Assembly (NCBI GenBank): GCA_949296805.1
Contig: CASFPO010000007.1
Location: 17,291-81,290, forward strand
Length of the DNA: 64,000 bases
From: an uncultured Bacillota bacterium
GTDB taxonomy: Bacteria > Bacillota > Clostridia > Christensenellales > UBA1242
Direction: 5' to 3'
Shown: positions 8,621-57,948 of the stretch, one piece after another
Numbering within the stretch: the stretch's first letter is position 1
How the letters are laid out: the number at the start of each line of letters is the position of its first letter
Notes under the pieces: generated by a model
The model's database searches: none
What the model saw: the letters and a program-made list of their open reading frames with translations, nothing else
Told to the model about the DNA's origin: nothing
Translations under genes and position numbers: made by a program

Positions 8621-9158
8621 GGAGGCGAAAACGGCATTGTTGCTTGTTTTCGCTTTTTTTAAAGCGAAAAGCTACGCCCTAACATTTGTTTTCGCCTCCC
8701 CGCACCAAACGTAAATTCTCGTTTCACTCGAATTTAGTGCGACTTCTTATGAGGATGATTATTATATACTGCGTTTCTGCCTAGGCTTATCGGGGTTCCC
8801 CGCAAATCGTGAGATTTGTGGGGTGGTTTTCGGGGTTCCCCGCAAATTGAAAATTTGTGGGGTGGTTTTCGGGGTCCCCAAAAATTGCATAATTTTTGGG
8901 GTAAAGGAGCAAACGAGCGTTGCCGCAATAGTTACATAGTAACTTTGCCTGAGCGTAGTTTGCGACGTGGCGGTGGCGCTTATTTTTTCTCTCCCGGGGT
9001 TCCCCGCAAATCGTCAGATTTGTGGGGTGGTTTTCGTGACCAAACGTGATTGCTAAAGCAATCAGTCACGACTTTTTATAAGGATGCTATTTTGATTTTG
9101 CATTGTTGCTTGTTTTCGCTTTTTTTAAAGCGAAAAGCTACGCCCTAACATTTGTTTT
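8621..9158 (+). repeat. tRNA-Glu-linked modular hairpin cassette bounded by a perfect 59-bp direct repeat
   Basis: DR at 8634-8692 and 9100-9158. 12-bp helix GGAGGCGAAAAC (8621-8632)/GTTTTCGCCTCC (8688-8699) abuts the tRNA CCA. Four copies of GGGGTTCCCC-GCAAATC-loop-GATTTGTGGGG-type hairpins at 8792-8831, 8832-8870, 8871-8907 and 8996-9035. Two ACCAAACGT internal-loop hairpins. Confidence 0.85.
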
Positions 9159-20399: not shown

Positions 20400-21572
<1,173 letters not shown>

Positions 21573-22271: not shown

Positions 22272-22280
22272 TATCAAAAA

Positions 22281-26582: not shown

Positions 26583-26630
26583 AAAAAGACTTAAAACTTG
26601 GCTTAAATATTGCTAGTTTATAAGTCTTTT
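26583..26630 (+). terminator. Intrinsic terminator (long bulged stem flanked by A7/T7)
   Basis: AGACTTAAAACT (26587-26598) pairs with AGTTTATAAGTCT (26615-26627) with one bulge, followed by T7. Confidence 0.6.
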
Positions 26631-28002: not shown

Positions 28003-28193
28003 AGTTTAATATATGTTTTTTATTTTATATTTGATAATTTCTTTTTAATTTATTTTTTATAAATATTTTTATAATTTACGCAAATAATTATTTTATATAT
28101 ATTTATATAAATTAATATATATTTCGTCAAAATATTTTGATTTTTTCCATCACTATGATAAAATGCTTATATATGAATAAGAGGTGTAAAGTT

Positions 28194-31100: not shown

Positions 31101-34100
31101 GTAAATTCGACTACAGAAAGCGGTCAAGTGACTACAGGAATAAGTAGTTATAACGGCAACTATCTTTTGATTGACATTGATGAGGTTAGCTTTATACGGG
31201 ATACCACTTCAAGCACCTACTCTCGCTGGCAAGGAATATATAGCTATGAGCTTACCTTCCTTGACGAAAATAATGAGGCGATTGAAGGCACTTACCGAAT
31301 ATTGATTAGAGATAGTTCTAACAGCTATATAACAGGCAATGAGACCTATGACTTTTTAAATAATCCAAGTGCCTTTTTAACCTTTAATGTTACCTCTGAT
31401 GACGCAAAGCTTTCTGTCTACCGAGGCGAAGGCGAACTGCTTGCCTTTTCAAGCTTTAACAATTCTGGCAACCTTTACTATTATGAAGAGAACGGCGAAA
31501 CTATCTACACCCACCTGCCTGTTATCAATGAGACAGACCTAGAGCAAAGTGAACTGACTTATCGCTTTGCCTACTACTCGCCTGTCAACGCTGATGAAAA
31601 CTTGATTGTTTCCTTTATTCCACTTGCTGAAAACGGCTCAACACTTGAATATGTTACGGTAACTTACTACCCTTACATAAAATCACAATATGTTGTAGAT
31701 GGTGTATACTATTACTATTATGATATATCAGATAACCCTCAAGATATACAACAAATACCTATCTTTACCTATTCAAGCAATGACACTTATGAACCTGGTG
31801 CCGTAGTTACCTTTGACTTATCTCTTGGAAGTGGTACCTTGCCATCGGCTGGGCGTTATGTGCTTGAAAGACAATATATAGAAGGCAATGAAACTGACCA
31901 ATATGACTACTTTAGAAGAACTATTACCTTTGATGTAGACGAGTTTGGCATTATCTCTCCACTTGAAACGGTAGATAACGGAGAAAGCTCTTCGCTTGAG
32001 AGCATAGTTGGTGGAGATATCATCCTTAGTATGTATAGTGGCGAGGGCAATTCGTCAATTGAGGTTTCCTTCCCAAGCTACAGTCAAGATACCGGGCTTA
32101 ACAGTGGCTCTTTCTACACCCAAGAGGAGTTTGTAAGCGAGGATATCGTGCCAAGTTTTAGCGTTTCTGGAAACAAGCTACCTATGAGCTTGTATGTTCC
32201 AAAGTACAAGTTTACCACTCACGCTGTATATGACGAGGCAACAAATAGCTACTCGGTAAATTACAATAATGGACTTTCCTATTATGGCAACAGCTACTAT
32301 AGCTTAGGCAGTGACAATCTTTGGCATGTCTACTCAGAGGGCGTAGAGATTAGCGAGCCTTTTAATAGCGAAAGCGAAGCCCTTGCCTTCCTTCAAGACA
32401 AAGCTTCGATTGCTGAATATGTTCTTCAAGCAAAAATTGTTGCTTATGTTACAGAAAATGGCATAAGCACCACTAAATATTACTACTCTGACGGAAGCAC
32501 AACAAATGGATACCTAAACTTTTTTGAAACAGCAGAAAATGGTATTATAACTTCTACCTCTCCTGCGGTAGACAACTTCTACTTGCAAGGAAATTATGTT
32601 GTAACTTTATATCAATCCTATAACGACCCGCAAAGCTCCTTCTATTCTTTCTACAAGTTTGGCTTTGTGATAGAATCAGATGAGCCTGAGTATAACCTTC
32701 TTGATAGTGAGGGTTATCAGCTTAATGAGGTAACTCCTGGGGTATATTACACCAACAGTGACAGCATAACTGTTCAGTGGGAAGTGCCTACTAGCAACTA
32801 CCAAGCAAAAATTAATGAGGACTTTGATTATATCTATATAACCTCTTCGGGAAGTTTTTCTCACAGTGGCGAAGTTATAGCCGATGGCAATACGAGGTCA
32901 TTTACTATAGACTGCTCTGATTTAATCTTGACAAATGGCTCTTCACTTTCTATCACTTTGGAATTTGAAGGTCATAACTCTTCCTTCTACAGACGAACAA
33001 CTAAAACTATCTATTTTGATAGGTCTGCACCGCTTGAGAACCTAAATAACCTTATGGCAAACACCGAGAGTGCGACCGAAATCTTTACAACAAACTATCA
33101 ACAGCTAGAGTTTAGGTCTTATCAAGACTATCAAGGAGAGGCGCTTGAGGTTACTGCCTCGAACCTAAGCGAAATAGCAAATGCTAGCTACTCTTACACT
33201 ATCTCTACTGGAACCTTTAGGTATTTTAGCTATAATGTTACAACTTCTTTCTTTAATGATGTGCTTATGCAAAGCTTAAGAAATGCTTCTACTAATACCT
33301 TTGGCACACAGGAAATATATTATAGGCAAATACCAGCACTCGACTCCTACACACAAGTGGATAGGCATTCCTTTGCAGAAAACAGTTACTTCTCGCTTAT
33401 GGTTGATGATAATCTGTCGCTCAGCTGTGGCTATTATGAGATTGTTGAGCGTGACCACGCTGGCAATATGACAGTGTATCTTGTCTATGTAATCGACTCT
33501 ACCTTTGAGGTAGACGAAAACGTTTCAGATATTGCACTAAGCTATATAAACAATAATCATACCGAAAGTAATTATGTTTACTCAAGTCAAATTTCCAACG
33601 GCTATAATATCTATTCTAACAGCGGATTTACCCTTGAGCAAGTTTCATATAAATCTGACCCTTGGAATATCTTCTACGTTCAACTTTACGGGCAGAGCCC
33701 AGTAAGATATTTGACTTCGCCTTGGCTTGAAGAGGGTTATGTTTATAGGGTTACTATAAGCTCCTCTGCAATAGATTTTCAGCAGATTGCCCTTTCTACC
33801 ATCTTTGCTAGTGTTGAATCTTCTAGCAACAAACATATCCTTACTTTGACGGATAGAACTTCTGGCAGTATGCAAAATGTTTATCTAGCTATAATGGACG
33901 CCAATATCTACACCGAAAAGGTTGAGGACCCGCAAAGAACATCGGCAATATTAAATATTTCAGTGCCGACGCTCGCTCAATACCAAAGCACTACCACCGC
34001 TTATGTATTTCCTACAAATATCAAGATTTATCAGTTTAATCCACTCTCCTCTCAAGAAGATGGCTATGATATCTTGATGGAAGCAAATCAGCTGACCTAT

Positions 34101-36650
34101 GGCACTTGGACTCCGCTTGATATCTATCAGCCAGCTCTTAGCTATATTAGTTTTAACTATATAAATAACGGCGCTACCCTGCAAATTGTTATCAATCTTG
34201 GTGCAAATGCCCCACAAAAGGTTAAGTTTGAAATTTTAGACAACTTTGGCAATACCACCACAATTATTCAGCTTGCAAATGAAGTTGCCTATGACGAGAT
34301 AAGCGGAACCTATGCCATCTACACCCTTACCGAAAGTAATGGCGATGTTACCTATCTATCACAAAATGATATTACCTTTACTTACAATGAGCTACTTTAC
34401 ACAATCGATATCTTTGATATAGACGGCACTTCAATAATAGACAGCCTTAACGCTACTCATCTTGCAAATAATCTTGCCACCTATACTTTCTCGGCTGAGG
34501 AAGGTTTGAATATATGGAATGACTACTATAGAATCGATATTTTTGACAGCGAAAATGGAGATTATTTAAGAACACTCCACCTTCGTCTTTACTATCAACT
34601 GCCATACTTGACTTTCCAAACAAGCGAAGTTGAAAATGGCGGTATAGCCTTCTTTGATAGAAACCTTGTTCTATTTGAGAGAAATGACTTTGGTCAAGAG
34701 ACTGGAGTAACTGTAAACTTTAACGGAAACTCATACTCGGCTACTGCAACGGTGCTGACCACCTATTCTCCTACTGTTCGTGTGAGGTTTAGAGATGGTC
34801 AAGCCTTAAATTATAACGGTGTTTACTCCTATCAAGATAGCTATGGATACAGCGTATATCTTTCTAGCAATGGTGGTCAATCTTGGACAAACATCAACGA
34901 TAGATATTCTGCAACAAGCGGATACACTATCTCGGGAGTAAATGATTATTTGATTTTAATCATATATGACTCCGACCAAGTATTTACCGACCTATGCCAG
35001 ATTTATAAAATTAGTATTCTTGACTATACTGCCTCTTACTATTATATTACAGTAGACGGGCTGGTTATCGAGCCAAGCGATATGATTTATAAAGATAGTC
35101 AAGGCAAGGAATATCACACAAGCTATCTAGTAGCTGTTGACATTGATGACAAAGATAACAGACTTCATGTAAATCCTAACACAGAGCTAAATGTTGTAAT
35201 AAGCTCGCCAGTTGTTTCTAGCACAGGCACAGATGTTTCTGTTGAAACTTATTCCTATTCTTGCAATCAATCACGTGGCGATTTTGCAATAATCTATATC
35301 CCGCCATCTGATAATATAGTAACCGAGTTTACAGCTGAAACTACCTCTGGCGGTGTTACTAACTTAAGATTAAATTCTGGCTCAGTAGCTACTGTGGTGG
35401 ATGGCGAAGATGAACGCCAATATGACAGAATTAAAATTAATTTTACCTCTTATTATGGAATCAGCCAAAACTTAGTTAATATTGAGGTATTAAAATACTT
35501 TAATGGTCAATATGTTCAAATTACCCCACAGGTATACACTTCTGGCACAACAAACTATATTTATCTTGAAAAAGCTGGCTCTTATAGGTTAAGACTTTAT
35601 GACTCCTGCCAACCTGCCAACGAGCAGAGTTTTAATGGCAATCGCTACTTTGACCTTATCTTCTTAAACGGAGTGCCTTTCACTATAACCTATACCGACA
35701 CTATAACAGGCGAGCAAGTAATCTCTGAAAGAGTTGACAGGGCTGTATATAACGGAAGTGTTATCCTTTCGCTTTACAACCTTTCTACCTACTATCAAAT
35801 TGGTCACTATCCAAGAATTTCAGTTACTCGAAATGGTGCAAGTTACACGGGTTATACTTCTTCTAATAACACTTACACCTTTACAAGTCCTGGCTACTAC
35901 ACTGTAACTTTTGTGGATGCTATATCTTCGCTTGAGGGCGAGGCAAAAGAGTTGCGACAAGACCAATTTAACTTTACTATCATAAATGAAAATGAATCTC
36001 GCTATTCTTATACCTTTAGTCCATATAAAAATTACTATGTTGAAAGCGTTATTAAATATAATGGAGATAATGAAGTTGATATCACTCAAGATTTGATAGA
36101 TATAGGCAACTTTGAAACGGTACAGATAAACGGCAGGACTTACCTTTCGGAAGTGTCACTTAGCTACCTTGACAACAAAACTGGCAGTGGTAAATACAAA
36201 CTAACTATCAACACTAACGATTTAACCTATGCAAATTCTACAAGTAGCTCTTACACCTTTGAGTTTTGGCTTAACAATCAAGTTCCGCCTTTGAATATAT
36301 CTTTAAATGAAGGCGATTCAACAACTGGCTCTATCACAATAACCTTTAATGTACAAAACTTCTACAATGCTATGGGCGATTGTTATATCCGCATTGGCTC
36401 TGACTACTACTACTTTACAGCAGACACGCTTGCAAGTTATGGCGATGTTTATACAATAACCATTAATGAGACTGGCACTTATTATGTACAAGTCTACACG
36501 ATGAGTAACAACCTGCTCTACTCAAGCAAAATTGTGAGAAACGAGCCACTAAATGCCTTTGCTATAATTGCTATAATTATTGGTGTAATTGCTTTAGTAG
36601 CTATCATCTTAATAACAATCAGACTTAGAAAGAGGCAAAAGGTTAAATAA
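28194..36650 (+). CDS. Giant (2818 aa) N/Y/S/T-rich surface protein with N-terminal signal (possible lipobox LLAC) and C-terminal TM anchor
   Basis: Start moved to MISKRLFNGFIISFILIGLLACG (ATG 28194, AAGAGG RBS). The C-terminus is LNAFAIIAIIIGVIALVAIILITIRLRKRQKVK. No LPXTG, and no catalytic motif recognised. Confidence 0.8.
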   Translation: MISKRLFNGFIISFILIGLLACGMFFSSNKLPSTFAEPPTYQMIENTQYDYLDVNQNNTTGNYQDTIFLMQGGQTGSSIDVSIARGDLISNSLGNQNYAYISGLDESGTPREYYYFSFPNNLSLYYNLTNTQVESGQSGTNLLQEQLISTYATSNGDNAFAIESIGLTPQKLEISFLLNTLESQPQFSGNQVILNQEGIYTLVINVNLYFTDNGGITFTPSVATIYYTFMVFNSETYFNFSSGLPNLTPSSNMQSTALPSSNRFSRYYFYNYSYSGDSLTDPNALATISYNPNLYQLTITYVDLNSNSYTSTLVYSNGEFSQVDDNGNVIDESEYFVQSYLEGEDGKVVFLNLGYYDISLQYLYTSEQNVYELPLDQLENTTLLNKDQRLYIYGYQAVYSDYASIDPVTNQPEAVELKTYNLEELVQENSADITASVNNYLVNHPDIIGSSANNTSNPISYVGVNYKTVSAPMPFDNDLIETMALTYLNELEISPASTNQTPIKFITNGNLSAVNSRIYRLTTTRTDGIVSYQTDGYSNFEGFNQNEPGIYLYLIQYSYDNYLSTTGTLQNSYYHYQIFFFEITNTLPTVTVLDEELNEVYASGFTNKGVYIINDSQSNNYDAEVTITLSAYNYNRENDNDNRENDNYNRENYYYYDQDITTLSNYGIYYTYFEYLSGEENSLYNEKLGGKYGIYIDPSNPYSNAYYTINVYSANTTQPSTKYFTIDTSEISGISARSVSFSSNNTYRIGSALSSYNTNQPTVFSWNEKPSGARTYGYVKYIPLSSINYYSSQTNSASLTQLLNYWLDEGILPVSYKIDFSQTNQSSWSEYRNSLSFTSTIDATYVKSNAGFYILEVYDQAGNSKFEVFLLDTTQPLFVQHTQYNSEIRQIMTNNQSISVPESGTRMWIEWGSQKAIYLESLEAYQLITPYRYSPDYQADAVRLSEKLNEFFSSSSEDIYRATTITVGTVNSTTESGQVTTGISSYNGNYLLIDIDEVSFIRDTTSSTYSRWQGIYSYELTFLDENNEAIEGTYRILIRDSSNSYITGNETYDFLNNPSAFLTFNVTSDDAKLSVYRGEGELLAFSSFNNSGNLYYYEENGETIYTHLPVINETDLEQSELTYRFAYYSPVNADENLIVSFIPLAENGSTLEYVTVTYYPYIKSQYVVDGVYYYYYDISDNPQDIQQIPIFTYSSNDTYEPGAVVTFDLSLGSGTLPSAGRYVLERQYIEGNETDQYDYFRRTITFDVDEFGIISPLETVDNGESSSLESIVGGDIILSMYSGEGNSSIEVSFPSYSQDTGLNSGSFYTQEEFVSEDIVPSFSVSGNKLPMSLYVPKYKFTTHAVYDEATNSYSVNYNNGLSYYGNSYYSLGSDNLWHVYSEGVEISEPFNSESEALAFLQDKASIAEYVLQAKIVAYVTENGISTTKYYYSDGSTTNGYLNFFETAENGIITSTSPAVDNFYLQGNYVVTLYQSYNDPQSSFYSFYKFGFVIESDEPEYNLLDSEGYQLNEVTPGVYYTNSDSITVQWEVPTSNYQAKINEDFDYIYITSSGSFSHSGEVIADGNTRSFTIDCSDLILTNGSSLSITLEFEGHNSSFYRRTTKTIYFDRSAPLENLNNLMANTESATEIFTTNYQQLEFRSYQDYQGEALEVTASNLSEIANASYSYTISTGTFRYFSYNVTTSFFNDVLMQSLRNASTNTFGTQEIYYRQIPALDSYTQVDRHSFAENSYFSLMVDDNLSLSCGYYEIVERDHAGNMTVYLVYVIDSTFEVDENVSDIALSYINNNHTESNYVYSSQISNGYNIYSNSGFTLEQVSYKSDPWNIFYVQLYGQSPVRYLTSPWLEEGYVYRVTISSSAIDFQQIALSTIFASVESSSNKHILTLTDRTSGSMQNVYLAIMDANIYTEKVEDPQRTSAILNISVPTLAQYQSTTTAYVFPTNIKIYQFNPLSSQEDGYDILMEANQLTYGTWTPLDIYQPALSYISFNYINNGATLQIVINLGANAPQKVKFEILDNFGNTTTIIQLANEVAYDEISGTYAIYTLTESNGDVTYLSQNDITFTYNELLYTIDIFDIDGTSIIDSLNATHLANNLATYTFSAEEGLNIWNDYYRIDIFDSENGDYLRTLHLRLYYQLPYLTFQTSEVENGGIAFFDRNLVLFERNDFGQETGVTVNFNGNSYSATATVLTTYSPTVRVRFRDGQALNYNGVYSYQDSYGYSVYLSSNGGQSWTNINDRYSATSGYTISGVNDYLILIIYDSDQVFTDLCQIYKISILDYTASYYYITVDGLVIEPSDMIYKDSQGKEYHTSYLVAVDIDDKDNRLHVNPNTELNVVISSPVVSSTGTDVSVETYSYSCNQSRGDFAIIYIPPSDNIVTEFTAETTSGGVTNLRLNSGSVATVVDGEDERQYDRIKINFTSYYGISQNLVNIEVLKYFNGQYVQITPQVYTSGTTNYIYLEKAGSYRLRLYDSCQPANEQSFNGNRYFDLIFLNGVPFTITYTDTITGEQVISERVDRAVYNGSVILSLYNLSTYYQIGHYPRISVTRNGASYTGYTSSNNTYTFTSPGYYTVTFVDAISSLEGEAKELRQDQFNFTIINENESRYSYTFSPYKNYYVESVIKYNGDNEVDITQDLIDIGNFETVQINGRTYLSEVSLSYLDNKTGSGKYKLTINTNDLTYANSTSSSYTFEFWLNNQVPPLNISLNEGDSTTGSITITFNVQNFYNAMGDCYIRIGSDYYYFTADTLASYGDVYTITINETGTYYVQVYTMSNNLLYSSKIVRNEPLNAFAIIAIIIGVIALVAIILITIRLRKRQKVK

Positions 36651-45724: not shown

Positions 45725-45753
45725 TTGACAAATAACTTATATAATGATATTAT
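45725..45753 (+). promoter_or_regulatory. Candidate promoter of the 1765-aa gene
   Basis: TTGACA (45725-45730), 17 nt, TATTAT (45748-45753). Confidence 0.5.
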
Positions 45754-45785
45754 TATACTATAATACTTTATACAAAGGAGTAAAT

Positions 45786-48700
45786 ATGGCAGTAGAAAAT
45801 TCTGTTTCTATTAACGTAGATGTTAACGCACAAAACTCAGAAGGCAAACCGCTTAGTCAAAAAATAACAATGCACAACAAGCATTTTTGGGACGAAGACT
45901 CTTATTTTGCTTGTAGCGATGGCAGTGATAACCTTTTGCAAGTGGGACCTAAAAAATTAGTTCACTATTTTACCCTTAGCGGACTTGACAAATTTTTATC
46001 AGAGGATGGGCGATCGCTTTCAGCTGACAGCACACTTGCCTCTATCCTAACAAAAGGTATTTCCCTTGGAATGCACTCTTTGCAGGTAAGCCAAAATGGT
46101 AAAGACCTTAATATTGATATTGACGCCTCGGGCTACCATATCTCTGTTACACCAAGACAAATTACTTTAACTTATTCTAGTGGCGAGGAGAAGAAAAGCT
46201 ATTCTTACTCGTCAGAGGGCTGTGTTGATGTATCTTTTAATGCCATTGTAGTTATAAATATGCTGCTTTCTGAGCGAGCTACCACTGTAAAAAGTGCTGA
46301 AGATATTTATGACATACCACCTTATTTGCTTGGAATGTATTTTAAAAATCACAAAGATGACTTTACTAACAAGATAGACAAAACAAAGCTTACAAAAATC
46401 ACTTTTACTGAAGATGGACAGCCTTACTGCTTTGTTACCCACGTCAATAAAAAAAATGAAAGAGAAGTTTTGCTTTTTACAGGCGGAAAACTAGTACCTT
46501 TACAAGATATTATGGAGCCTCAGTATGACCCGTCTACCAACAGCTATAACCTTGTTGCTACTTCAAAATCGGCTGAGCATCCAGAACACTTTGCTATACC
46601 TATTGAAGTAGACGAAGAGGGCTTTATTTCTGACAAAACTTTAACAGGACTTTCTGTTCTATTTGTTGAAACCAGACTTGATTATGATGTTACCGCACCA
46701 GATGGAACGTATATAGACTTTATTAATGAGGTAGATGGCAAGGAAAAACTAAATAAAGACGCTTTTGTTGAAAAAGGCACTATAGAATATACCCCAAACT
46801 TTTTTGCCATAATGCCAGTAGAGGCTGAAGGTAACGAGGCTGAGGGTGACGCTAGTAGCACAAGTGGTAGCGAAGAGGCAACAGGAACTGGTGGCGAAGA
46901 TCCAGCAGGTGCTGGTAGCGAAGAGCCTACGGGAGCTGAAAGTGAAGAGTCGGCAGAAACCAGTGGCAGTGCGTCAGCAGGAGAACCAGCAGGAGCTGAT
47001 GGTGGAGAGCCAGCTGGTGCGGGGGCTGGTGGCGGAGCTGGTGCTAGTGCGTCATCTGGTGCGGGAGATAGAAGCGGAGAGGCTTCTGGCAAACCACATG
47101 CCAACAATCCATACCTTAACTACTACAATTATCAAAACAGTGCTGAAGCCAAGCAAGAGCTTAAAGAGAGAAATGCTCAATTTAAGGCAAATATGCAAAC
47201 TTTTAACACTGCAATGGGCGACAGTTTGTTCGGAGTTGGTGCTATTATGACGCTTGTTTCACTTATACCAGGGGTTGGGCTTGCAGTAATGATACCTGGG
47301 TTGATACTATCTTGCGTAGGACTTGTGCAAACAACTTTTGCCGATGACCTTGTATTTAGTCCTTTTAAGGTTGCAAAACACAAGATAAGAGATTACCGAT
47401 TTGAAGAGGGAGAAGAATTTGAGTACCGTAGCAAGTTTTTAGAGCGAGAGAAGGAGCTTGACAGACTGCACGAAAATTCGCAGGAGGCGTTAAGTGAATT
47501 TCTTTCAATATACTCAAATTTAGGCGAAGGCGAAAATACCTTTGCCCTCACTTTGGCAGAGCTATTTAACAGCAATGGTGTGGGCATAGCTATAGACGGC
47601 GACAAGATGTCACAACTCCACTCGCTTGACCATTTAGACCAAAGTATAGCTATGGCGTCTATCCTTGAGCAGATAGCGAGCGAAACGTCAGAAGAAGAAA
47701 AAGCCAAGCTTATTGAAAGTTTTGCAGACAATTATTTTCAAGACTTAACCGAGGAGCAGTTAAATTTAATTAATACCACCCTCTTCAGTGACAGTAACAA
47801 AGAAGGGCTAAAGGCTTATTTAAGGCAACTAAACCAAACAAATACCGTTTTAGCACAAGAGAGAACACTGTTTAACTCTCAGCAACAGGAGCTTGATAAT
47901 GCGACCATCTATCGAATAAAGTTTTTTGCTAGCACGCCACAGCTTTCTGAGGAGCAGAGAGTAAAATTATTTGAGAGATATGGCGAAGATATTATAAAAT
48001 TTGCCCTTACTAAATATAACGGCTCTGCGCAGATTCTAGAAAGTATTGTATCCTCTGCGCCAGAGGGCACTCAAGCTCAGCTTAACGAGATACTTGACAA
48101 CGCTTTTGATAGGGTTCAAGCCAAGTTTGACTCAATAGATAAGCAAGCGTCTGACAATGTTGCAAAACACGAGCAAGTAGAGGTTTTGCGTGGGTTTGCT
48201 GGTGCTATATCACAGCTTGAAAATGTGGGCGACAATCTTGTGACAATTGACCAGCTTAGCCAATCGGTAAAGGAGTTTACAAATGGTTGCACTCAGCTCT
48301 TGCATCAAGACAGCAAAGCAATGGAAAGCCTTGGCGCAATTGCTGATGCATTAGTTCGAGGCAAGTCTCATCTTGACGCTTCGCATAGAAATGAACAATC
48401 TATTCTCAATCAAATTGCTAGCTATTTTGCAGGGTTTGAGGATACTTCGGCTGAGGCTACAAGTTTGACTGACAAGCAAAAGGAATGTTTTGAAAAACTT
48501 GAAGAGGCAGGCTTTTATAAAGAGATTGCCACTTTGTATCAGCATCAATCGACTCGCACTTTGCTTCCAGCTTTATCTGGCAAGGTAGAGAGCGAGGAGA
48601 GTATAATTAATATTGTAGACATTTTGGCAAAGGAGAGGTTACTCTCTGTTATTGAAGAGGCTAGCAAGAGCAGTGGCGCACGAACACTGCTGAGCAAAAA

Positions 48701-51083
48701 GACTCCTCAAGAGCTTGCCGAGATGATAGAGGTAGCAGACGATGGCACAGTAACTGTTAATTTTGGCGGAGTAAGTTTTGAGTACACAAACGAAGATAAG
48801 CAAGAGTGCTTGTCCACTCTTGACTATGTAAATGCAAGAGCCGAATATGACAAGGAGAAAAATAAAACTGCAATAAACCTTATAGATGACAATTTTGTTA
48901 AGCTTGCCTTGACCGATGTAAATAACTCTAGCTCGCCTATTGCAAGGTTTGACAGTGCAAGCGGAAGCTATATAGTTGAAAATTATAATGACTCTGAGCA
49001 CCCTACGATAACAACAGAGGCAGAATTATTTGCAGACCTTGAGCGAAGATACCCTAGCTTTGCCTCTTACGATGAGGAGACTAAGCGAAGGTTTGTGCTT
49101 ACTAAACTTGGTCTAGAAGGTCAGCAAGCAAGGCTTAAACATATGACAGAAAAGCTTAACCTAATCTCAGAGCGAGAAGAGTTAAGGCTTGAGAGCGAGA
49201 TTAAAAAGGGCGTAAATGTTGAGGCTAATAAAACCAAAAAGGCTGAGCTTAATGCAAGACGCACGGCAAAAGAGCAGGAATACGAGGTGTTATCTGCCAT
49301 CTACAGTAATGCGGAAGAGCTAATAAATGCTATTTTAAGTGGAAAGGTTGACCGCTTGTATGATGACCTAACTATCAGAAAAACCTTAGAAGATGAGGTA
49401 GACCTTGACTCTACTACCCTCTCCGACCTTGGCGCAGAAGTGAGCAAAAAGGTTGTGCAGTACACTGCGTTTGAAAAGCTTATCACTGACTTGCCATTAT
49501 CGGAGCAAGAGAAAAAGGATATAACTCAAGCTATCAAGACCAACCTTTCTACTCACAGTACCACACCACTTGACCAAATAGTTAGAGAGGAGCTAAAACC
49601 TTATCTAGAGAGTGCTACTGTTGACGGAAAAACTTGTCAGGCAATCTTGACACCTTTCTTTGAAGATGGCAAGCTTGACGGCAAGAAAACCGAAGAATTT
49701 TGTCAAAGCAAGGACGAGTTAATCGATAAGAGAACAAAATTAAATCTGACTTCAGCTAAATTCCTCTTTGGCGATAAATACACCAAAAAGCAGTATAAAA
49801 CTAGCAAAAATAGAGCCAAGGCAACAGAGCAGACCTATACTGACTATGTTGACTTCTTTGCAAAAAATAGCAAGTTTGACAGCAGAACTAAAAAGACCCC
49901 ACTCTACCCTGACAAAACTTTTGAAAGTGAAGAAGAGCTAAAAGAGCAAATTATTAGCGACCTAGCAAAAGCTAAAACAAAAAGAGCGCAAGATAAAGTT
50001 ATCTCTGGCTTTGCAATAGCGTTGGGCTGTGAAAAAGAGTACAAGTCTGCTAAAAAACTTATTGCCGATAAAAATATACAAAATGACGACAATAGAACTT
50101 ATATTAAGGCTACCGCAACAAAGAGCAAACGCCAAAGGGCTCACGAAAAGGTAGAGTCGTTTGTTCAAGACCTACTTAGCTCTGATTTGACAACTGCTGA
50201 CAAAATTGAAGAAGAAAAGCTTAGACAAAAAGTATTTGACCATCAACAAGCGTTTGACGCTATGGGTGTTTCTGCAAAAACACTGATTGAAACTTTGCAA
50301 AATGACAAATTAACCCAAGAGCAGAAGGAAGAAAAAATTAAAGAATGGCAAGAGCAGTATAACCTTAATAGAGAACTTGACGATATGCAACTTGATGACA
50401 TCATTGCAGTTGCAGATGAGGCAAGGTTTGGCGCAACGGAAGAAGATAGAGCTAAAATAAGAGCAAAAGCTATATACAAGAGGCAAAAAAGCGCTTATGC
50501 AATATACAGCAAAAAGAGCAAGTTGATAGAAAAGTTTTTGACCGAAAACCCAACCTATCCTTATGCACAAGAACTTATTAACGCCTTTGCAAAGGGCGAC
50601 CAAAGTTTCTTTGATTTGCACCCTGAGGCTAGGCAAGAAGGACTTTCTTTTGACGTAAACGATTTACACTATATGCAATATCTTGGCATAGATAGTTCTT
50701 CCTTTACAGGAAAAACAGTAGGAAAAAATCCTTCGCTTTCTGATAAAGAGAGAAAGAAGTTTGAAAAGACCTTAAAGAAAACTGCTCAAAAACTGACAGA
50801 AAAATTGCAAGAAGAAAGAGCAATGGCAACCGTTAGAATGGAGCAGAACTATAAAGCTTTTAGCAATCAGACCAAGGATGTAAATACCACTTATGGACGT
50901 GACAAAACAAGAAATAGAGATGCACGTGATGAAAATATAGTGCCACTATCTATCGCCCTGCAAAGACTTAAACTTGCAAGACAAAAAACCACTGCTCAAG
51001 AGCATACGCCGTCTGCTCCTAGCGCTGAAGCGACTAGAGTAACAGCGTCAGCACGTGAAGATGAAGGACGAGAAAGCGAATAA
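45786..51083 (+). CDS. Very large hypothetical protein (1765 aa): N-terminal globular region, acidic G/A/E/S disordered segment, TM hairpin, ~1250-aa E/K-rich helical region
   Basis: Start moved to MAVENSVSINV (ATG 45786, AAAGGAG RBS). TM hairpin FGVGAIMTLVSLIPGVGLAVMIPGLILSCVGLV. No P-loop or other catalytic motif seen. Confidence 0.75.
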   Translation: MAVENSVSINVDVNAQNSEGKPLSQKITMHNKHFWDEDSYFACSDGSDNLLQVGPKKLVHYFTLSGLDKFLSEDGRSLSADSTLASILTKGISLGMHSLQVSQNGKDLNIDIDASGYHISVTPRQITLTYSSGEEKKSYSYSSEGCVDVSFNAIVVINMLLSERATTVKSAEDIYDIPPYLLGMYFKNHKDDFTNKIDKTKLTKITFTEDGQPYCFVTHVNKKNEREVLLFTGGKLVPLQDIMEPQYDPSTNSYNLVATSKSAEHPEHFAIPIEVDEEGFISDKTLTGLSVLFVETRLDYDVTAPDGTYIDFINEVDGKEKLNKDAFVEKGTIEYTPNFFAIMPVEAEGNEAEGDASSTSGSEEATGTGGEDPAGAGSEEPTGAESEESAETSGSASAGEPAGADGGEPAGAGAGGGAGASASSGAGDRSGEASGKPHANNPYLNYYNYQNSAEAKQELKERNAQFKANMQTFNTAMGDSLFGVGAIMTLVSLIPGVGLAVMIPGLILSCVGLVQTTFADDLVFSPFKVAKHKIRDYRFEEGEEFEYRSKFLEREKELDRLHENSQEALSEFLSIYSNLGEGENTFALTLAELFNSNGVGIAIDGDKMSQLHSLDHLDQSIAMASILEQIASETSEEEKAKLIESFADNYFQDLTEEQLNLINTTLFSDSNKEGLKAYLRQLNQTNTVLAQERTLFNSQQQELDNATIYRIKFFASTPQLSEEQRVKLFERYGEDIIKFALTKYNGSAQILESIVSSAPEGTQAQLNEILDNAFDRVQAKFDSIDKQASDNVAKHEQVEVLRGFAGAISQLENVGDNLVTIDQLSQSVKEFTNGCTQLLHQDSKAMESLGAIADALVRGKSHLDASHRNEQSILNQIASYFAGFEDTSAEATSLTDKQKECFEKLEEAGFYKEIATLYQHQSTRTLLPALSGKVESEESIINIVDILAKERLLSVIEEASKSSGARTLLSKKTPQELAEMIEVADDGTVTVNFGGVSFEYTNEDKQECLSTLDYVNARAEYDKEKNKTAINLIDDNFVKLALTDVNNSSSPIARFDSASGSYIVENYNDSEHPTITTEAELFADLERRYPSFASYDEETKRRFVLTKLGLEGQQARLKHMTEKLNLISEREELRLESEIKKGVNVEANKTKKAELNARRTAKEQEYEVLSAIYSNAEELINAILSGKVDRLYDDLTIRKTLEDEVDLDSTTLSDLGAEVSKKVVQYTAFEKLITDLPLSEQEKKDITQAIKTNLSTHSTTPLDQIVREELKPYLESATVDGKTCQAILTPFFEDGKLDGKKTEEFCQSKDELIDKRTKLNLTSAKFLFGDKYTKKQYKTSKNRAKATEQTYTDYVDFFAKNSKFDSRTKKTPLYPDKTFESEEELKEQIISDLAKAKTKRAQDKVISGFAIALGCEKEYKSAKKLIADKNIQNDDNRTYIKATATKSKRQRAHEKVESFVQDLLSSDLTTADKIEEEKLRQKVFDHQQAFDAMGVSAKTLIETLQNDKLTQEQKEEKIKEWQEQYNLNRELDDMQLDDIIAVADEARFGATEEDRAKIRAKAIYKRQKSAYAIYSKKSKLIEKFLTENPTYPYAQELINAFAKGDQSFFDLHPEARQEGLSFDVNDLHYMQYLGIDSSSFTGKTVGKNPSLSDKERKKFEKTLKKTAQKLTEKLQEERAMATVRMEQNYKAFSNQTKDVNTTYGRDKTRNRDARDENIVPLSIALQRLKLARQKTTAQEHTPSAPSAEATRVTASAREDEGRESE

Positions 51084-51089: not shown

Positions 51090-51125
51090 AATAAGGCAAT
51101 TTAATTTTTGCCTTATTTTTTTATT
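51090..51125 (+). terminator. Intrinsic terminator
   Basis: AATAAGGCAA (51090-51099)/TTGCCTTATT (51108-51117), then a T-run. Confidence 0.85.
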
Positions 51126-51420
51126 TTTATTATTTTTTTAATTTTTTAAACTTTTTTATTATTTTTTTATATTTTTTTAATTTTTTTGTAATTTATCATT
51201 ATTTTTTATTAATTTTACCTATTTTTAATTATTTTTTAATTATTTTTATTAATTTTTTATTATTTTTTTATTATTTTTTAGCTTTTTTTATTATTTTCTT
51301 ATTAATTATCATTATTTTTTATCATATTAATTAAAAAATATATTTTTATTTTAAAAAATAATTTTATCAGATAAATTTTATTTTATTTTTAAAGCACAAA
51401 ATTTTTAGTTTTGACTTTAC
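51126..51420 (+). repeat. About 300 bp of almost pure A/T with ~10-bp-phased T-tracts
   Basis: Print blocks repeatedly end in T-runs (ttatttttat tattttttta attttttaaa ...). Only a handful of G/C. Confidence 0.8.
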
Positions 51421-53205: not shown

Positions 53206-53934
53206 ATGTATATAGAAGGAAAAAATGCAATCAAGCAAGCACTCGAGGCTGGAGTGACTATCAACAAGCTTATGATAGACAAAAATTATCAAGGCAGAAA
53301 GGATGAGATTATTAGCCTTGCTGTGCAGAAGAAAATTAAGTTTGAATTTGTGCCGAAGCTTGTGCTTGACAAGAAGTCGAAAACTGCTCATCATCAAGGA
53401 TATATTGCAGAAAGTGTGGACTTTAATTATTGTGAGGTTGAGGATATACTTGCAAAGGCTTTGACTAGAGGAGAAAGTCCATTTATTGTTATCCTCGACG
53501 GACTTGAGGACCCGCATAATTTTGGTGCAATCATCCGCTCGTGTGAATGTGCTGGTGTGCATGGAATAATCATCCCTAAAAACCGAGCTGTTCAAGTTAA
53601 TGAAACTGTTATCCGCACTAGCACGGGTGCGATTTCTAATATGCTTATTGCCAAAGTGACCAACCTTAAAGACGCCATAAAAGTACTTAAAGAAAATAAT
53701 GTTTGGGTTTATGCCTGTGAGGCAAAGGGCGAGAATATCTTCTCTTGCAACAAAGATTTTTCATTGCCAACCGCCATTGTAATCGGCTCGGAAGGGTTTG
53801 GAGTTAGGCAGTCGCTTATTGCTTATTGCGACGGCGTGTTATCGCTTCCGCTTAAAGGCAAGGTCAACTCTTTAAACGCTTCGGTAGCTTGCGGGATTGT
53901 TGTATTTGAAATTGTAAGAAGAAGGCAAGTTTAA
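53206..53934 (+). CDS. rlmB: 23S rRNA (guanosine-2'-O)-methyltransferase RlmB (SpoU/TrmH family)
   Basis: 242 aa. LDGLEDPHNFGAIIRS, IGSEGFGVR, NSLNASVACGIVVFE. Confidence 0.9.
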   Translation: MYIEGKNAIKQALEAGVTINKLMIDKNYQGRKDEIISLAVQKKIKFEFVPKLVLDKKSKTAHHQGYIAESVDFNYCEVEDILAKALTRGESPFIVILDGLEDPHNFGAIIRSCECAGVHGIIIPKNRAVQVNETVIRTSTGAISNMLIAKVTNLKDAIKVLKENNVWVYACEAKGENIFSCNKDFSLPTAIVIGSEGFGVRQSLIAYCDGVLSLPLKGKVNSLNASVACGIVVFEIVRRRQV

Positions 53935-53958: not shown

Positions 53959-54053
53959 GGGCAAAAGTCCGCTCTGCCAAGCCCTTGGCAGAGCCTTTTC
54001 GCCCCTAGGCGAAAAGAAATTTTAAACGCAAGTTTAAAATTTGACTTTTGCCC
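53959..54053 (+). other. 95-nt near-perfect four-way-junction element (closing helix plus three tetraloop hairpins), 29 nt upstream of the sigH start
   Basis: P1 GGGCAAAAGTC (53959-69)/GACTTTTGCCC (54043-53). H1 CTCTGCCAA-GCCC-TTGGCAGAG (53972-93). H2 CTTTTCGCC-CCTA-GGCGAAAAG (53995-54016). H3 AAATTTTAAAC-GCAA-GTTTAAAATTT (54017-42). Confidence 0.85.
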
Positions 54054-54082: not shown

Positions 54083-54667
54083 ATGACTGATGAAGAATTA
54101 TCGCAACAAGCTCAAGCAGGACAAGAGAGTGCTGTAAACCAGTTGCTTACAAAATACAAGCCACTTGTCAATCAGATAGCAAGAAGTTACTTTTTAACCG
54201 GTGGAGAAATGGAGGATATTGTCCAAGAAGGAATGATTGGACTATTTAAGGCTATAATGCACTATAATGGCAAGAGTGCCTCTTTTAAAACCTTTGCTAG
54301 CACTTGCATAAAACACCAAATTCAAAGTGCGGTACGAGTGGCAAGTTCGGAAAAAAACAAAATCCTCTCCTCCGCCCTGCCTATCATTGACCTTGTAAAT
54401 ACCGAGGAGGAAGAAGATAAGTCAGAGATTGTCTTTCCATCAGACTTACCTTCCCCAGATGAACGCCTTTTAGAGAAAGAACGCATTATGGAAATCGTTG
54501 AAAATATAAGAAAAACTCTCTCTAAGCTGGAATTAAAAGTGCTATCACTGTATTTAAAGGGCTTTAGTTATAATGAAATCTCTAAGCAGAGTGGGTTAAG
54601 CAAAAAAAGTGTTGACAATGCCCTTACCAGAATCAAAAATAAACTCGCCTTCCTAAAGTGTTGTTAA
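54083..54667 (+). CDS. sigH: RNA polymerase sigma factor SigH
   Basis: 194 aa, ...YKPLVNQIARSYFLTGGEMEDIVQEGMIGLFKAIMHYNGKSASFKTFASTCIKHQI... AAGGAGAA RBS. Follows mrnC-rlmB, as in Bacillus. Confidence 0.88.
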   Translation: MTDEELSQQAQAGQESAVNQLLTKYKPLVNQIARSYFLTGGEMEDIVQEGMIGLFKAIMHYNGKSASFKTFASTCIKHQIQSAVRVASSEKNKILSSALPIIDLVNTEEEEDKSEIVFPSDLPSPDERLLEKERIMEIVENIRKTLSKLELKVLSLYLKGFSYNEISKQSGLSKKSVDNALTRIKNKLAFLKCC

Positions 54668-54679
54668 GTGTCGTTGACA

Positions 54680-55190
54680 GGTGTTGTTAACACCTTTTTT
54701 ATTTAAGTGTTATTATAAAACTTATTTTTTTCTGCGATTTTGTTTAATTATGTATTTAATTTTATCTATTATTAGGTGTTGTTAACACCCTTTTTTATAT
54801 TTAAGGTTACTGTAAACCTTATTTTTCTCTGCGATTTTGTTTAATTATGTATTTAATTTTATCTATTATTAGGTGTTGTTAACACCCTTTTTATATTTAA
54901 GGTTACTGTAAACCTTATTTCTCTCTACGATTAAGTTTGATTGTGTATTTAATTTTATCTATTATTAGGTGTTGTTAACAGGTGTTGTTAACACCCTTTT
55001 TTATTTAAGTGTTATTATAAAACTTATTTTTCTCTACGATTTTGTTTATTTGTGTAATAAGTTTTACTTATTATCTAGTGCTAACAGCACATTTTTTATT
55101 TAAGTTTTTCTATAATCAAAGTTTTTTCTGCGAAGTAATTTAATTATGATACAAATTTTATCTGTTAATTAGTGCTAACAGCACATTTTT
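54680..55190 (+). repeat. Six tandem ~95-109 bp units, each with a terminator-like hairpin plus T-run, downstream of sigH
   Basis: GGTGTT-GTT-AACACC at 54680, 54775, 54872 and 54981 (with a partial duplicate at 54968). Covarying GTGCT-AAC-AGCAC at 55078 and 55172. Each is followed by T5-6. Confidence 0.85.
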
Positions 55191-55273
55191 AGTATATCAG
55201 TTGACTTATTTGTTTTTTTGATATATTATTAATCAAAATAGTTTTTTGCTAAGCTATTTGGCTGGCAAAGGAC

Positions 55274-55356
55274 GAAGGTCAAATTTTAAACTTTCGTTTA
55301 AAATTTCCTTTCGCTAAAAGCGAAAGGGCTTGCAAAGAATTTGCAAGCTGACCTTC
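55274..55356 (+). other. 83-nt four-way-junction element (second family member), 21 nt upstream of the metG start
   Basis: P1 GAAGGTC (55274-80)/GACCTTC (55350-56). Ha AAATTTTAAAC-TTTC-GTTTAAAATTT (55281-306). Hb CCTTTCGCT-AAA-AGCGAAAGG (55307-27). Hc GCTTGCAAA-GAA-TTTGCAAGC (55328-48). Confidence 0.85.
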
Positions 55357-55377
55357 CCCGCCTACAAGGAGAAAAGT

Positions 55378-57387
55378 ATGGAGAACAAATTTGTAAAACC
55401 AAGACCACAGTTTCCTAAAAAAGCTGTTATAACCTCTGGTATGCCCTATGGGAACAAACTTATTCACTTTGGGCATCTAGGAATGATACTGCGTGCTGAC
55501 GTATTTGCACGCTTTCTGCGAGACAGAATTGGCAAAGATAATGTTATCTATGTATCAGGGACAGACTGCTATGGCTCGCCAGCGGTCGAGGCTTTTAGAA
55601 AACTGCAAGAAGAGGGAAAATACAAGGGGCAAACTCTTCTTGACTTTGTTACCCAAATGCACGACAAACAAAAGGAAATCCTTGATAAATTTGAAATATC
55701 TTTTAACTTTTATGGTGGCTCTGCTATTGGTAGAGCCGGGCAGATTCACGAAGAGCTTAGCGAATGGTTTATTAAAACCTTACACCAAAATGGTATGGTG
55801 TCAAAGCATTCTTCCTACCAATTTTATGACAAAAAGCATAAGTGCTTACTTAATGGCAGACAAGTTATCGGCAAATGCCCTATTGATAATTGCCAAAGTG
55901 AAAAGGGCTATGCTGACGAGTGCGACCTAGGTCATCAATATCTTCCACAAGACTTAATCGACCCTATCAGTGCTTTAAGTGGAGATAAACCAGAGCTTGT
56001 GAAGATAGAAAATCTTTATTTTGACCTCGAAAAATGCACCGACCTTTTAAAAGAATGGATTAGCTCGATTGAAAAAAATAGCGACACCCCTCAATTTATG
56101 GTAAAGGAAATAAAAGAATTCTTTAAAAAGCCTGAGATTTATATCAAAAAGGAGTATTTTGAAGAATTCAACAAAATACAAAACCTTTTGCCACCTTTTA
56201 CAGAGCTTGAGCGTGGAGATAAAGCTCCTAAGACCATCGTTTTTGACAATCTTGAAGATAGAGAAAAGGCTTGTGAAATTTTGGCTTCAAAGGGCATTCG
56301 CTACCGTACAGGCAAGACGTTAACGCCTTTCCGCTTAACTGGAAATATCTCTTGGGGCGTGCCTTGTCCTACTATTGACGGCATTTCTGGGCAAACTTTT
56401 TATGTATGGCCAGAAAGTTTGTGGGCTCCGATTACCTTTACAAAAACCTATCTTGAGGCTAAGGGCTTTGATGACGAAGAATGGAAAAAATACTGGGCTG
56501 ACCCTGACGCCCAAGTTTATCAGTTTTTAGGCGAGGATAATCTATACTTTTATGGACCTGCACAGCAGGCTATTTGGCTATACACTCAAGGCAAAAATCC
56601 TGTGCTTAAGCCAGAAAAAGGACAACTGCAACTTACTAAAATCAATCCTATCAAATCAATACTTTATATGAACAAAAAGGCAAGTTCGTCTGGTTCAATC
56701 AAGCCACCTATGGCTATCGAATTTTTGGAGCATTACACTGCCGAACAAATCAGAATGCACTTTCTTGCTATGAATCTTGCCAATAACAATGTTTCACTTT
56801 CGCCAAAGGCTTTTGACAAAGATGACACCAGTGATGACATCGATCCAGTTGTCAAGGAAGGCAATCTGCTTACCAATGTCTACAATCGAATTTTGCGTAC
56901 TGTATTTTATTCAACTCAAACTCACTTTGATGGAATATTGCCAAAGTCCTCTATTGACGCAAGTACAATGGAAGAGTGCAGTAAAGTTATACTTAATGTT
57001 GAAAGATTTATGTATGATAAAAAATTCCATCAAGTTTATAACGCCCTTGATGTGTTTATTAGAAATATCAATAAATACTGGGTTAAAGAGATAAACAACT
57101 GCGTTACAGAAGAAAAGCTTGGGCATTTAACAGCAAACACTATGCAAATGATATTTGTTGCTAATGCCCTGCTCCATCCAATAGCACCAAGCGGAACAGA
57201 AAATGTGGCAGATTATATCGGCTTTAACAAAGACCTCTGTTTTAACTGGGAAAATATCTTTGGTAAATATGAAAGCGTGCTTGATAAGTCAAGAGGTGGC
57301 ACTATAAAAGAATTAAAACCAAAAGAAGATTTCTTTAAACGCCATCAGTCGCAACTTGACGAGCTTGCAAAGAAAATGAATGAATAA
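55378..57387 (+). CDS. metG: Methionine--tRNA ligase
   Basis: Start moved to MENKFVKPRP (ATG 55378, AAGGAGAA RBS). MPYGNKLIHFGHLG (HIGH-type), a zinc-knuckle region GKCPIDNCQSEKGYADECD, overall MetRS pattern. Confidence 0.9.
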   Translation: MENKFVKPRPQFPKKAVITSGMPYGNKLIHFGHLGMILRADVFARFLRDRIGKDNVIYVSGTDCYGSPAVEAFRKLQEEGKYKGQTLLDFVTQMHDKQKEILDKFEISFNFYGGSAIGRAGQIHEELSEWFIKTLHQNGMVSKHSSYQFYDKKHKCLLNGRQVIGKCPIDNCQSEKGYADECDLGHQYLPQDLIDPISALSGDKPELVKIENLYFDLEKCTDLLKEWISSIEKNSDTPQFMVKEIKEFFKKPEIYIKKEYFEEFNKIQNLLPPFTELERGDKAPKTIVFDNLEDREKACEILASKGIRYRTGKTLTPFRLTGNISWGVPCPTIDGISGQTFYVWPESLWAPITFTKTYLEAKGFDDEEWKKYWADPDAQVYQFLGEDNLYFYGPAQQAIWLYTQGKNPVLKPEKGQLQLTKINPIKSILYMNKKASSSGSIKPPMAIEFLEHYTAEQIRMHFLAMNLANNNVSLSPKAFDKDDTSDDIDPVVKEGNLLTNVYNRILRTVFYSTQTHFDGILPKSSIDASTMEECSKVILNVERFMYDKKFHQVYNALDVFIRNINKYWVKEINNCVTEEKLGHLTANTMQMIFVANALLHPIAPSGTENVADYIGFNKDLCFNWENIFGKYESVLDKSRGGTIKELKPKEDFFKRHQSQLDELAKKMNE

Positions 57388-57611: not shown

Positions 57612-57688
57612 CGCGGGATGGAGCAGTTCGGAAGCTCGTCGGGCTCATAACCCGAAGGCCGTTGGTTCAAATCCAACTCCCGCAACCA
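57612..57688 (+). tRNA. Initiator tRNA-fMet (anticodon CAU), CCA encoded
   Basis: C1-A72 mismatch (CGCGGGA.../...TCCCGCA-A-CCA). Three G-C pairs closing the anticodon stem (TCGGG-CTCATAA-CCCGA). T-arm GTTGGTTCAAATCCAAC. Confidence 0.92.
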
Positions 57689-57948
57689 CGTCGCAAACTA
57701 CGCTCGGACAAAATTGCTTTGCAATTTTTGTACTGACGCTCGTTTGCTCCTTTTCCCCACAAATCTCACGATTTGCGGGGTACCCCATATCTCCCCCACA
57801 AATCTTACGGTTTGCGGGGGTTTTTTGTAAGCCAGACTTTTTTATCGGTTTCGGGTTATATCAAGCTCAATGAAGTTGAGCGAAGATATAATCTCGTTTT
57901 CGGCTGTTAGTTCTTTTAACTCCCGCAACCACGTCGCAAACTACGCTC
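57675..57948 (+). repeat. 212-bp hairpin cassette bounded by a perfect 31-bp direct repeat that includes the last 14 nt of tRNA-fMet
   Basis: AACTCCCGCAACCACGTCGCAAACTACGCTC at 57675-57705 and 57918-57948. The interior holds the inverted B module and hairpins CCCCACAAATC-TCAC-GATTTGCGGGG (57755-80) and CCCCCACAAATC-TTAC-GGTTTGCGGGGG (57793-57820). Confidence 0.85.

Follow-up and report, generated by a model that had tools for sequence, protein, structure and literature searches.

A nested palindrome with a perfect four-way-junction fold upstream of sigH, probably one member of an extragenic family of uncultured Clostridia

Does a striking fold placed before a regulator gene regulate that gene? 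The question is raised by a 95-nt element, here called c1, that lies between rlmB and a sigH-like sigma-factor gene in DNA of an uncultured Bacillota bacterium of the Christensenellales (contig CASFPO010000007.1, positions 17,291 to 81,290; this stretch of 64,000 nt is the whole of the DNA analyzed at this locus and is called the window, and its own numbering is used below). A first-pass annotation had offered four roles for c1, namely, a 5' untranslated region (5'-UTR) stabilizer or processing signal, a protein platform controlling sigH, a DNA cruciform, and a mobile palindromic element. The last two proved to be closest to the evidence, while a device for the control of sigH found no support. 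On balance, we favor the explanation that c1 is one copy of a lineage-restricted, structure-defined family of extragenic nested palindromes, comparable to the repetitive extragenic palindromes and bacterial interspersed mosaic elements (REP/BIME), with a fold that is under strand-symmetric selection by the host. Membership in a family and the lack of gene specificity are the firmest parts of this explanation and are highly probable; host-level selection on base pairing is likely. The family was found in several related uncultured Clostridia genomes, in every type of spacer and in both orientations, and closely related strains differ by its gain or loss. Base pairing in the family is conserved, covarying, and strand symmetric (Watson-Crick only).

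A perfect four-way junction on both strands

c1 is a complete four-way junction (53959..54053, forward on the + strand). Its closing helix, P1, pairs GGGCAAAAGTC (53959-53969) with GACTTTTGCCC (54043-54053) over 11 bp and encloses three hairpins of the same strand: H1, GCTCTGCCAA-GCCC-TTGGCAGAGC (53971-53994, 10 bp); H2, CTTTTCGCC-CCTA-GGCGAAAAG (53995-54016, 9 bp); and H3, AAATTTTAAAC-GCAA-GTTTAAAATTT (54017-54042, 11 bp). The last of these adjoins the 3' strand of P1, and its stem is A/T throughout, with the sole exception of a C-G pair beside the loop. Sequence and fold are as they had first been described, with P1 and the three hairpins in place and all 41 pairs Watson-Crick. Two details changed: H1 has 10 bp, one pair more than had been listed, and RNAfold leaves only 1 nucleotide unpaired at the junction, where three had been counted.

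As RNA, the + strand of c1 folds with −55.9 kcal/mol (z = −10.8), a value that none of 200 shuffled sequences reached. The − strand is practically equivalent (−55.5 kcal/mol; z = −8.7), with the same fold on the complement, and DNA parameters give −40.0 kcal/mol (z = −11.2). The element starts 24 nt past the rlmB stop codon and ends 29 nt ahead of the ATG of the sigma-factor gene (54083), the latter distance being the one already reported.

A subfamily with one invariant hairpin and covarying helices

A second copy, c2 (55264..55362, with a perfect core at 55274-55356), lies before metG, its core 21 nt ahead of the ATG (55378). Such a member had been noted there and is indeed present, but it is inverted relative to c1: on the + strand, H3 leads. 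The closing helix of c2 has partly decayed (outer P1, GGC..GG / CC..GCC). The H3 of c2 reads AAATTTTAAAC-TTTC-GTTTAAAATTT (55281..55306, +), and the H3 pattern matches twice in the window versus 0.03 matches expected. H3 and part of H2 are the only parts that c1 and c2 have in common, and both are followed by the motif ACAAGGAGAAAA.

The exact sequence of H3 was searched for in 185,579 species, each represented by a single genome, and metagenome and viral contigs were scanned likewise. The genome scan gave 16 loci. Complete four-way junctions accounted for 7 matches, in 5 metagenome-assembled genomes (MAGs) of uncultured Clostridia, and the metagenomes contributed 3 further complete junctions. 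Viral contigs had no match to the H3 pattern, and c1 itself had none in phage and plasmid collections when these were searched with blastn. Matches in Clostridium ljungdahlii, C. ragsdalei, Chryseobacterium, Bacteroidota, and others were lone hairpins and were excluded from the family.

The copies of this H3 subfamily occupy three loci: the spacer between rlmB and sigH, the spacer between sigH and metG, and the spacer that separates an M1 peptidase gene (pepM1) from the divergent dnaB(DnaB_2)-dnaI operon. Across the three loci and at least 5 species, the stem of H3 is constant and its loop variable, and P1, H1, and H2 differ. At sigH in L012 and at dnaB in L011 (L numbers are our handles for the related DNA compared), the copies share H3, have an identical H2 stem, GTTTTGCC, and are similar in P1, GGCGGAAG, which indicates that the subfamily has moved between unlinked loci.

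In order to follow the pairing through these changes, we used a covariance model, R1, built from three dnaB-locus copies, to which ten distinct copies were aligned; a MAFFT alignment of all copies was discarded as structurally wrong because of register shifts. R1 scores c1 at 57.3 bits (E = 6e-12) and c2 at 44.3 bits, on the − strand, while its background in unrelated DNA is at most 21.5 bits. In the R1 alignment, 99.2% of 392 cells are standard pairs, and 23 of the 41 pairs are changed on both sides. Double changes outnumber one-sided ones 70 to 2, and only 2 cells are G·U. By helix, covariation affects 8/13 pairs of P1, all 8 modeled pairs of H1, and 7/9 pairs of H2, while the 11 pairs of H3 are invariant in the 10 distinct copies. 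None of 500 shuffles reached these values, and sliding the partners lowered the paired fraction to 25 to 59%. Both further copies and covariation, which the first-pass annotation had named as things to look for in relatives, are thus present.

A wider class defined by shape

The architecture was also searched for without reference to sequence. A strict structure-only scan required a perfect helix, 6 bp or longer, around three abutting perfect hairpins with stems of 7 bp or more. It matched twice in the window and 19 times in 296 kb of clade DNA, whereas shuffled windows (20, totaling 1.28 Mb) and 126 kb of unrelated genomes gave 0 matches each. Related genomes contain at least 14 elements that share this architecture but are distinct in sequence. 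Members unrelated in sequence were recovered by the structure-only scan (L010 1724-1818, L011 300-397, and L015 792-884 and 1088-1183) and by a minimum-free-energy scan (L041 1485-1579, L042 10263-10357, and L043 8117-8224), the latter also recovering degenerate forms (L017 5-82, L011 7158-7250, and L041 14802-14888). The distribution of this shape-defined class rests on ca. 300 kb of clade DNA, since the genome- and metagenome-wide scans used exact H3. Local density was 2 per 64 kb in the window, 4 per 21 kb in L041, and 0 per 21 kb in L045.

The elements measure 78 to 108 nt (mostly 93 to 99) and consist of a G+C-rich closing helix of 7 to 14 bp and three abutting hairpins, with 37 to 46 pairs in all. 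Outside the H3 subfamily, pairwise identity is 0.54 to 0.69, versus a shuffle mean of 0.57. Each element has 0 or 1 G·U pair, always at helix ends except for one internal T·G (H2 of the L010 element), and folding energy is equal between the strands. The closing inverted repeat is perfect in every copy (7 to 14 bp), and its sequence is kept only within the H3 subfamily, where it is GGGCGGAAAG-like; in other members it is unrelated, the outer ends of elements being GGGC, GGCG, GCCC, AGCC, CAAG, TATT, and GATA.

Within the window, a possible degenerate relative follows tRNA-Glu (8621..8700, +), with a 12-bp closing helix, GGAGGCGAAAAC/GTTTTCGCCTCC, around one perfect 9-bp hairpin. Its membership is uncertain: the R1 score of 23.5 bits is borderline against a background of up to 21.5, and there is a partial repeat near 9100-9160. 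At L022 5300-5970 (equivalent to L015 700-1330, reverse), a 612-aa gene has a leader of ca. 390 nt that contains one four-way junction, preceded by a strong promoter match whose spacer includes a G8 run. The module of junction plus ca. 70-nt tail is duplicated there, and since the 5' strand of the closing helix, AGCGAATGT, recurs in the tail, an alternative pairing is possible.

Known bacterial extragenic repeats are recognized by sequence, whereas what stays constant here is an architecture, a closing helix with three perfect hairpins in ca. 95 nt. One could take this constancy at face value and regard the elements as a shape-specified genomic class, in which a junction-specific protein reads the perfect four-way junction (a "double cloverleaf" once both strands have folded). 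This protein would be a recombinase or transposase directed by structure, which spreads and flips the elements, or else a nucleoid or repair protein for which they serve, between genes, as supercoil sinks or as fixed landmarks resembling Holliday junctions. The copies at sigH and metG would be two landmarks of a genome-wide system. We regard such a dedicated reader as unlikely.

Turnover of elements and slow change of stems between strains

Whole elements come and go among close relatives. L025 and L012 are ca. 98% identical in rlmB, sigH, and metG, and the rlmB-sigH spacer of L025 is a different sequence of 71 nt without an element; the metG copy is retained in L025 despite the absence of the sigH copy. 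At seven loci of related lineages (SigH 74 to 78% identical), rlmB overlaps, abuts, or lies within 45 nt of sigH, and no element was found at either the sigH or the metG site. A relative with 71% identical DnaB had 0 elements in 21 kb. Orientation is also variable: the species of the window and that of L012 are sisters (MetG 86% identical), and the metG copy, forward in L012, L025, and L032, has the reverse orientation in the window. The proposals that the element controls sigH, or that it is a gene-specific replacement of the spacer that holds yacP in Bacillus, are not supported by these comparisons, with the inverted metG copy and the other genomic contexts telling against them as well.

Where an element is retained, its stems hardly change. 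Overall identity between the window and strain L002 is 93%, with scrambled sequence in the immediate flanks of c1, yet c1 is identical at 95 of 95 positions; in c2, the differences are confined to the loops and the end of P1. Over 12 close-strain comparisons (the most diverged pair was left out, and several share a reference element), changes were found at 2 of 980 stem positions, 38 of 1,918 flank positions, and 9 of 168 loop positions. Stems therefore change ca. 10-fold more slowly than flanks, and loops change faster than flanks.

These rates bear on the possibility that the elements are selfish or neutral palindromic DNA, that is, debris similar to MITEs (miniature transposable elements with inverted repeats) and with no host function, whose stems are perfect only through arm-to-arm template switching. 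Template switching would account for the strand-symmetric pairing, the pair flips, and the inversions (PMC8794818, PMC8604942), but stems should then change at about the neutral rate, by paired changes, instead of ca. 10 times more slowly than the flanks. The presence/absence polymorphism, the random orientation, the occurrence in any intergenic context, the confinement to one subclade, and the spread of the H3 subfamily to three unlinked loci would all suit such debris. However, c1 has remained intact amid diverged DNA, the three-hairpin plan of 93 to 99 nt persists without sequence similarity, and there is neither a target-site duplication nor a conserved terminal repeat. We consider selfish or neutral DNA, its stems kept perfect by mutation alone, improbable, and the case for selection on pairing by the host remains the better one.

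Genomic settings and possible cis regulation

The contexts in which elements occur cover all arrangements of neighboring genes. They are found in codirectional spacers (rlmB|sigH, sigH|metG, and pepM1|leucine-rich repeat [LRR] gene), in convergent spacers (L041 1485 and L043 8117), in divergent spacers (pepM1<>dnaB-dnaI and tyrS<>223-aa gene), and 3' of tRNA genes (L011 and L041, including degenerate forms). When the dnaB locus was aligned among five species, a conserved promoter, TTGTAA-17-TGnTAAACT, was found between the element and dnaB, and the start codon of the M1 peptidase gene has its own −10 box immediately upstream, so that the element sits between two divergent core promoters. At the tyrS locus, promoters matching the consensus at 12/12 and 11/12 positions both face away from the element, and a weaker match (10/12, − strand) abuts one of its ends. 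Judged by these promoter predictions, copies of the dnaB and tyrS types probably lie outside transcripts. As a separate observation on the peptidase side, a TATATT box is conserved in five species ca. 6 nt before the start of the M1 peptidase gene (L041 9735-9760 and orthologues), suggesting a leaderless mRNA.

The two copies in the window appear to be different in this respect. There is no promoter match in the interval from rlmB to c1 and only 29 nt after c1, so c1 would be transcribed together with sigH from further upstream. A promoter-like site, TTGACT-17-TATTAT (55201..55229, +; a consensus match only), lies upstream of c2 and would place it in the metG 5' leader; in the orthologous region of the sister species, TTGACA-17-TATTAT is found ca. 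40 nt upstream of its element. We infer from these consensus predictions that c1 is carried in an rlmB-sigH cotranscript and c2 in the metG leader. A promoter made by the element itself (TTGACT at the joint of H3 and P1) was considered and rejected, because there is no acceptable −10 box downstream and the dnaB-locus copies lack TTGAC.

T-tracts were sought after c1, c2, and the 3'-located copies, and none was found. A role of the elements as intrinsic terminators was rejected for this reason; terminator-like hairpins are present instead at 54679-55184. In this part of the sigH-metG spacer (54692-55183), we observed five tandem units of ca. 96 nt, each with a terminator-like hairpin, GGTGTTGTTAACACC or GTGCTAACAGCAC, and then a T-run. 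The spacer measures 504 nt in strain L002 versus 711 nt in the window, and the number of tandem units probably varies.

Marks of insertion were looked for as well. Flanking direct repeats were at most 0 to 3 nt long in 16 tests, which is the chance level for a target-site duplication. A clean insertion boundary was not definable, spacers without the element differing over their full length, and no parent element of c1 or c2 was seen in the DNA examined.

How far, then, could the copies before sigH, metG, and dnaB be a dedicated cis-regulatory RNA in the leaders of these genes, acting as a stabilizer, as an RNase III or Mini-III site, or as a platform for a protein that recognizes H3? Position is suggestive for c1 and c2, which lie 29 and 21 nt from a start codon and are both followed by ACAAGGAGAAAA; c2 and its orthologue have good promoter matches upstream, and the lack of promoter room after c1 implies its cotranscription with sigH. 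The orientation, however, differs between the sigH and metG copies and among metG orthologues, and the dnaB promoter lies downstream of the element, so that the dnaB copy is probably outside the mRNA. Conservation is similarly two-sided, with the H3 stem invariant and its loop varying at the three loci, and with stems kept between strains, but with the sigH copy absent from the 98%-identical strain and from 7/7 sampled loci of relatives, and with members of unrelated sequence located downstream of genes, in convergent spacers, and between divergent promoters. A structured RNA selected on one strand should have a fixed orientation and tolerate G·U; what we found was both orientations at orthologous and paralogous sites, a near absence of G·U, and tetraloops that are not of the stable RNA types. 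Taken together, strain polymorphism, the inverted paralogue and orthologue, the copies predicted to lie outside transcripts, the members of unrelated sequence, and the near lack of G·U misfit a sigH-specific riboregulator, and cis regulation of this kind is, in our opinion, very unlikely. From the earlier suggestion of a 5'-UTR stabilizer or processing signal, a generic effect on the rlmB-sigH transcript is possible, as c1 must be transcribed, while a gene-specific role is unsupported.

The cloverleaf-like topology and the positions in leaders and 3' regions might point to an established class of structured RNA or signal (a tRNA-like element, a riboswitch, a ribozyme, or an intrinsic terminator), but such membership has a negligible probability: in agreement with what had been stated from the start about tRNAs and riboswitches, ARAGORN and Rfam (RF00005) called only the three true tRNAs of the window, all elsewhere (8546, 25167, and 57612), and neither c1 nor c2, no Rfam family matched at its gathering threshold or, for c1, even at E ≤ 10, the only names in the permissive searches being SraB (E = 1.9) and a plant microRNA (E = 9.2), both far under their cutoffs, the perfect stems have no internal loops or conserved unpaired nucleotides for a ligand or catalytic core, and no T-tract is found downstream of the elements.

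Proposed structural punctuation and comparison with known systems

For a REP/BIME-like family under host selection, the following picture would hold. The fold itself would be kept on both strands, hence probably in the DNA, and in whichever strand is transcribed, and a gene-specific RNA signal would not be maintained. Upkeep would combine purifying selection with template switching between the arms during replication, a process that homogenizes inverted repeats and can invert the intervening segment. The elements would then serve as generic structural punctuation, as REP/BIME do. In transcribed copies (c1 and c2), a junction of −56 kcal/mol would stop exonucleases and would present two coaxial stacks of ca. 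20 bp to double-strand RNases, and the fate of the downstream mRNA would thereby be uncoupled from the upstream sequence; such copies probably act as decay or processing barriers. Copies between divergent promoters, if active, could provide an extrudable DNA junction as a supercoil sink or as a site for a junction protein. That the primary action takes place at the DNA level is quite conceivable, although we would not count on it; a primary action as an RNA barrier seems to us somewhat less probable.

Literature searches found no description of this four-way-junction architecture, and our best reading is that the family is undescribed and its design new among REP/BIME-like extragenic palindromes. 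REPs, which belong to Proteobacteria, are single hairpins of 20 to 40 nt with a GTAG/CGTC head and a linked transposase (RAYT); transcribed REPs are mRNA decay barriers, and REPs are also protein-binding DNA sites (PMC2817692, PMC3733652). The elements described here resemble them in being extragenic, noncoding, palindromic, strain variable, present in either orientation and any spacer, and free of target-site duplications, and also, as predicted for c1 and c2, in being carried in mRNAs. They differ in size and plan (78 to 108 nt and four helices, without a conserved head) and in perfection: REPs are imperfect and often number more than 100 near-identical copies, whereas here the ca. 95-nt junctions are perfect and members can be unrelated in sequence.

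A second comparison is with the Correia/NEMIS elements of Neisseria, which can bind IHF and whose transcripts RNase III binds or cuts (PMC2649163). With these and other MITEs (ERIC, BOX, RUP, and RPE), the elements share a similar size, termini that pair when transcribed, and proximity to genes, the alteration of gene expression being a MITE feature. Unlike them, however, they do not have conserved, transposase-recognized terminal repeats, target-site duplications (TA in Correia), or many similar copies. The closing repeats vary by subfamily, and the interior is made of three perfect hairpins instead of a loosely structured core. Near-identical copies were not seen within the DNA examined, c1 and c2 being limited to the shared parts described above.

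The inverted terminal repeats of adeno-associated virus (AAV), a parvovirus, terminate a linear genome of single-stranded DNA, fold into a three-way T shape, and are origins of replication with a Rep nicking site. They may resemble the elements in that nested palindromes give a multiway junction in single-stranded DNA and exist in two orientations (flip and flop), but the elements are internal to a bacterial chromosome. Finally, template switching at quasipalindromes creates and maintains perfect hairpins and inverts spacers, and the likeness extends to perfect arms, paired changes including pair flips, and inversion between repeats (PMC8794818, PMC8604942). It is, however, a mutational mechanism and not a class of elements, and alone it leaves the constant 95-nt three-hairpin plan and the slow stems unexplained.

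Several points weigh against the explanation that we favor. The 64-kb window carries only 2 clear copies. No transposase or other dedicated protein was found near any copy, with no Y1 family among the Pfam matches within 10 kb, and with no target-site duplication and a closing helix that differs between subfamilies, we cannot name a means of dispersal. The sigH, metG, and dnaB copies are near start codons, which a shared cis-regulatory role would also fit, and the promoters are consensus predictions only. The covariation count comes from an alignment that had been fitted to the model, comparisons between strains are few in number and in part nonindependent, and selection and homogenization of the arms are not fully separable.

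Should this pattern hold, either a junction of this shape, as DNA or RNA, has a host function in an unstudied lineage of Clostridia, or an as yet unrecognized structure-reading mechanism copies, flips, and repairs the elements. In both cases, they would be a clean natural system for the study of how nested palindromes are kept. For annotation, the lesson is that a striking fold before a regulator gene need not regulate that gene.

Flanking genes and other features of the window

The genes next to c1 and c2 are all on the + strand. rlmB (53206..53934) is above the NCBIfam cutoff for RlmB. For the SigH-like sigma-factor gene (54083..54667), the best matches are SigH models, under their cutoffs (157 versus 208 bits), and for metG (55378..57387), the MetG model is the best match, with a score under its cutoff. 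The gene order ychF/Mini-III/rlmB/sigH corresponds to Firmicutes synteny and backs the names first assigned. A link between c1 and the adjacent Mini-III RNase gene was considered and dismissed, as relatives that lack the element have the arrangement too, which points to ancestral synteny.

Structured spacers are unusually abundant in this genome. All three tRNA genes of the window are flanked by hairpin repeats of a distinct family, GGGGTTCCCCGCAAATCGTGAGATTTGTGGGG with variants, and by longer shared segments (8792-9027, 25341-25531, and 57686-57819). Long tandem intergenic repeat families are located at 1173-2409, 2438-3138, 16821-17237, 19135-19808, and 20142-20298, with units of about 54 to 356, 129/179, 92 to 93, 83 to 84, and 19 to 20 nt. 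Long T-rich intergenic arrays of TTTTTGTTGAA-type units are found at 22268-22517, 24400-24714, 26609-26912, and 51105-51350; their phasing of 10, 20, or 21 nt matches the DNA helical repeat. Among the coding sequences, an open reading frame (ORF) on the − strand (20400-21572) encodes a collagen-like Gly-X-Y protein, with 9-nt periodic repeats at 20844-21480, and two very large ORFs, of 2,837 and 1,779 aa, extend over 28137-36650 and 45744-51083.

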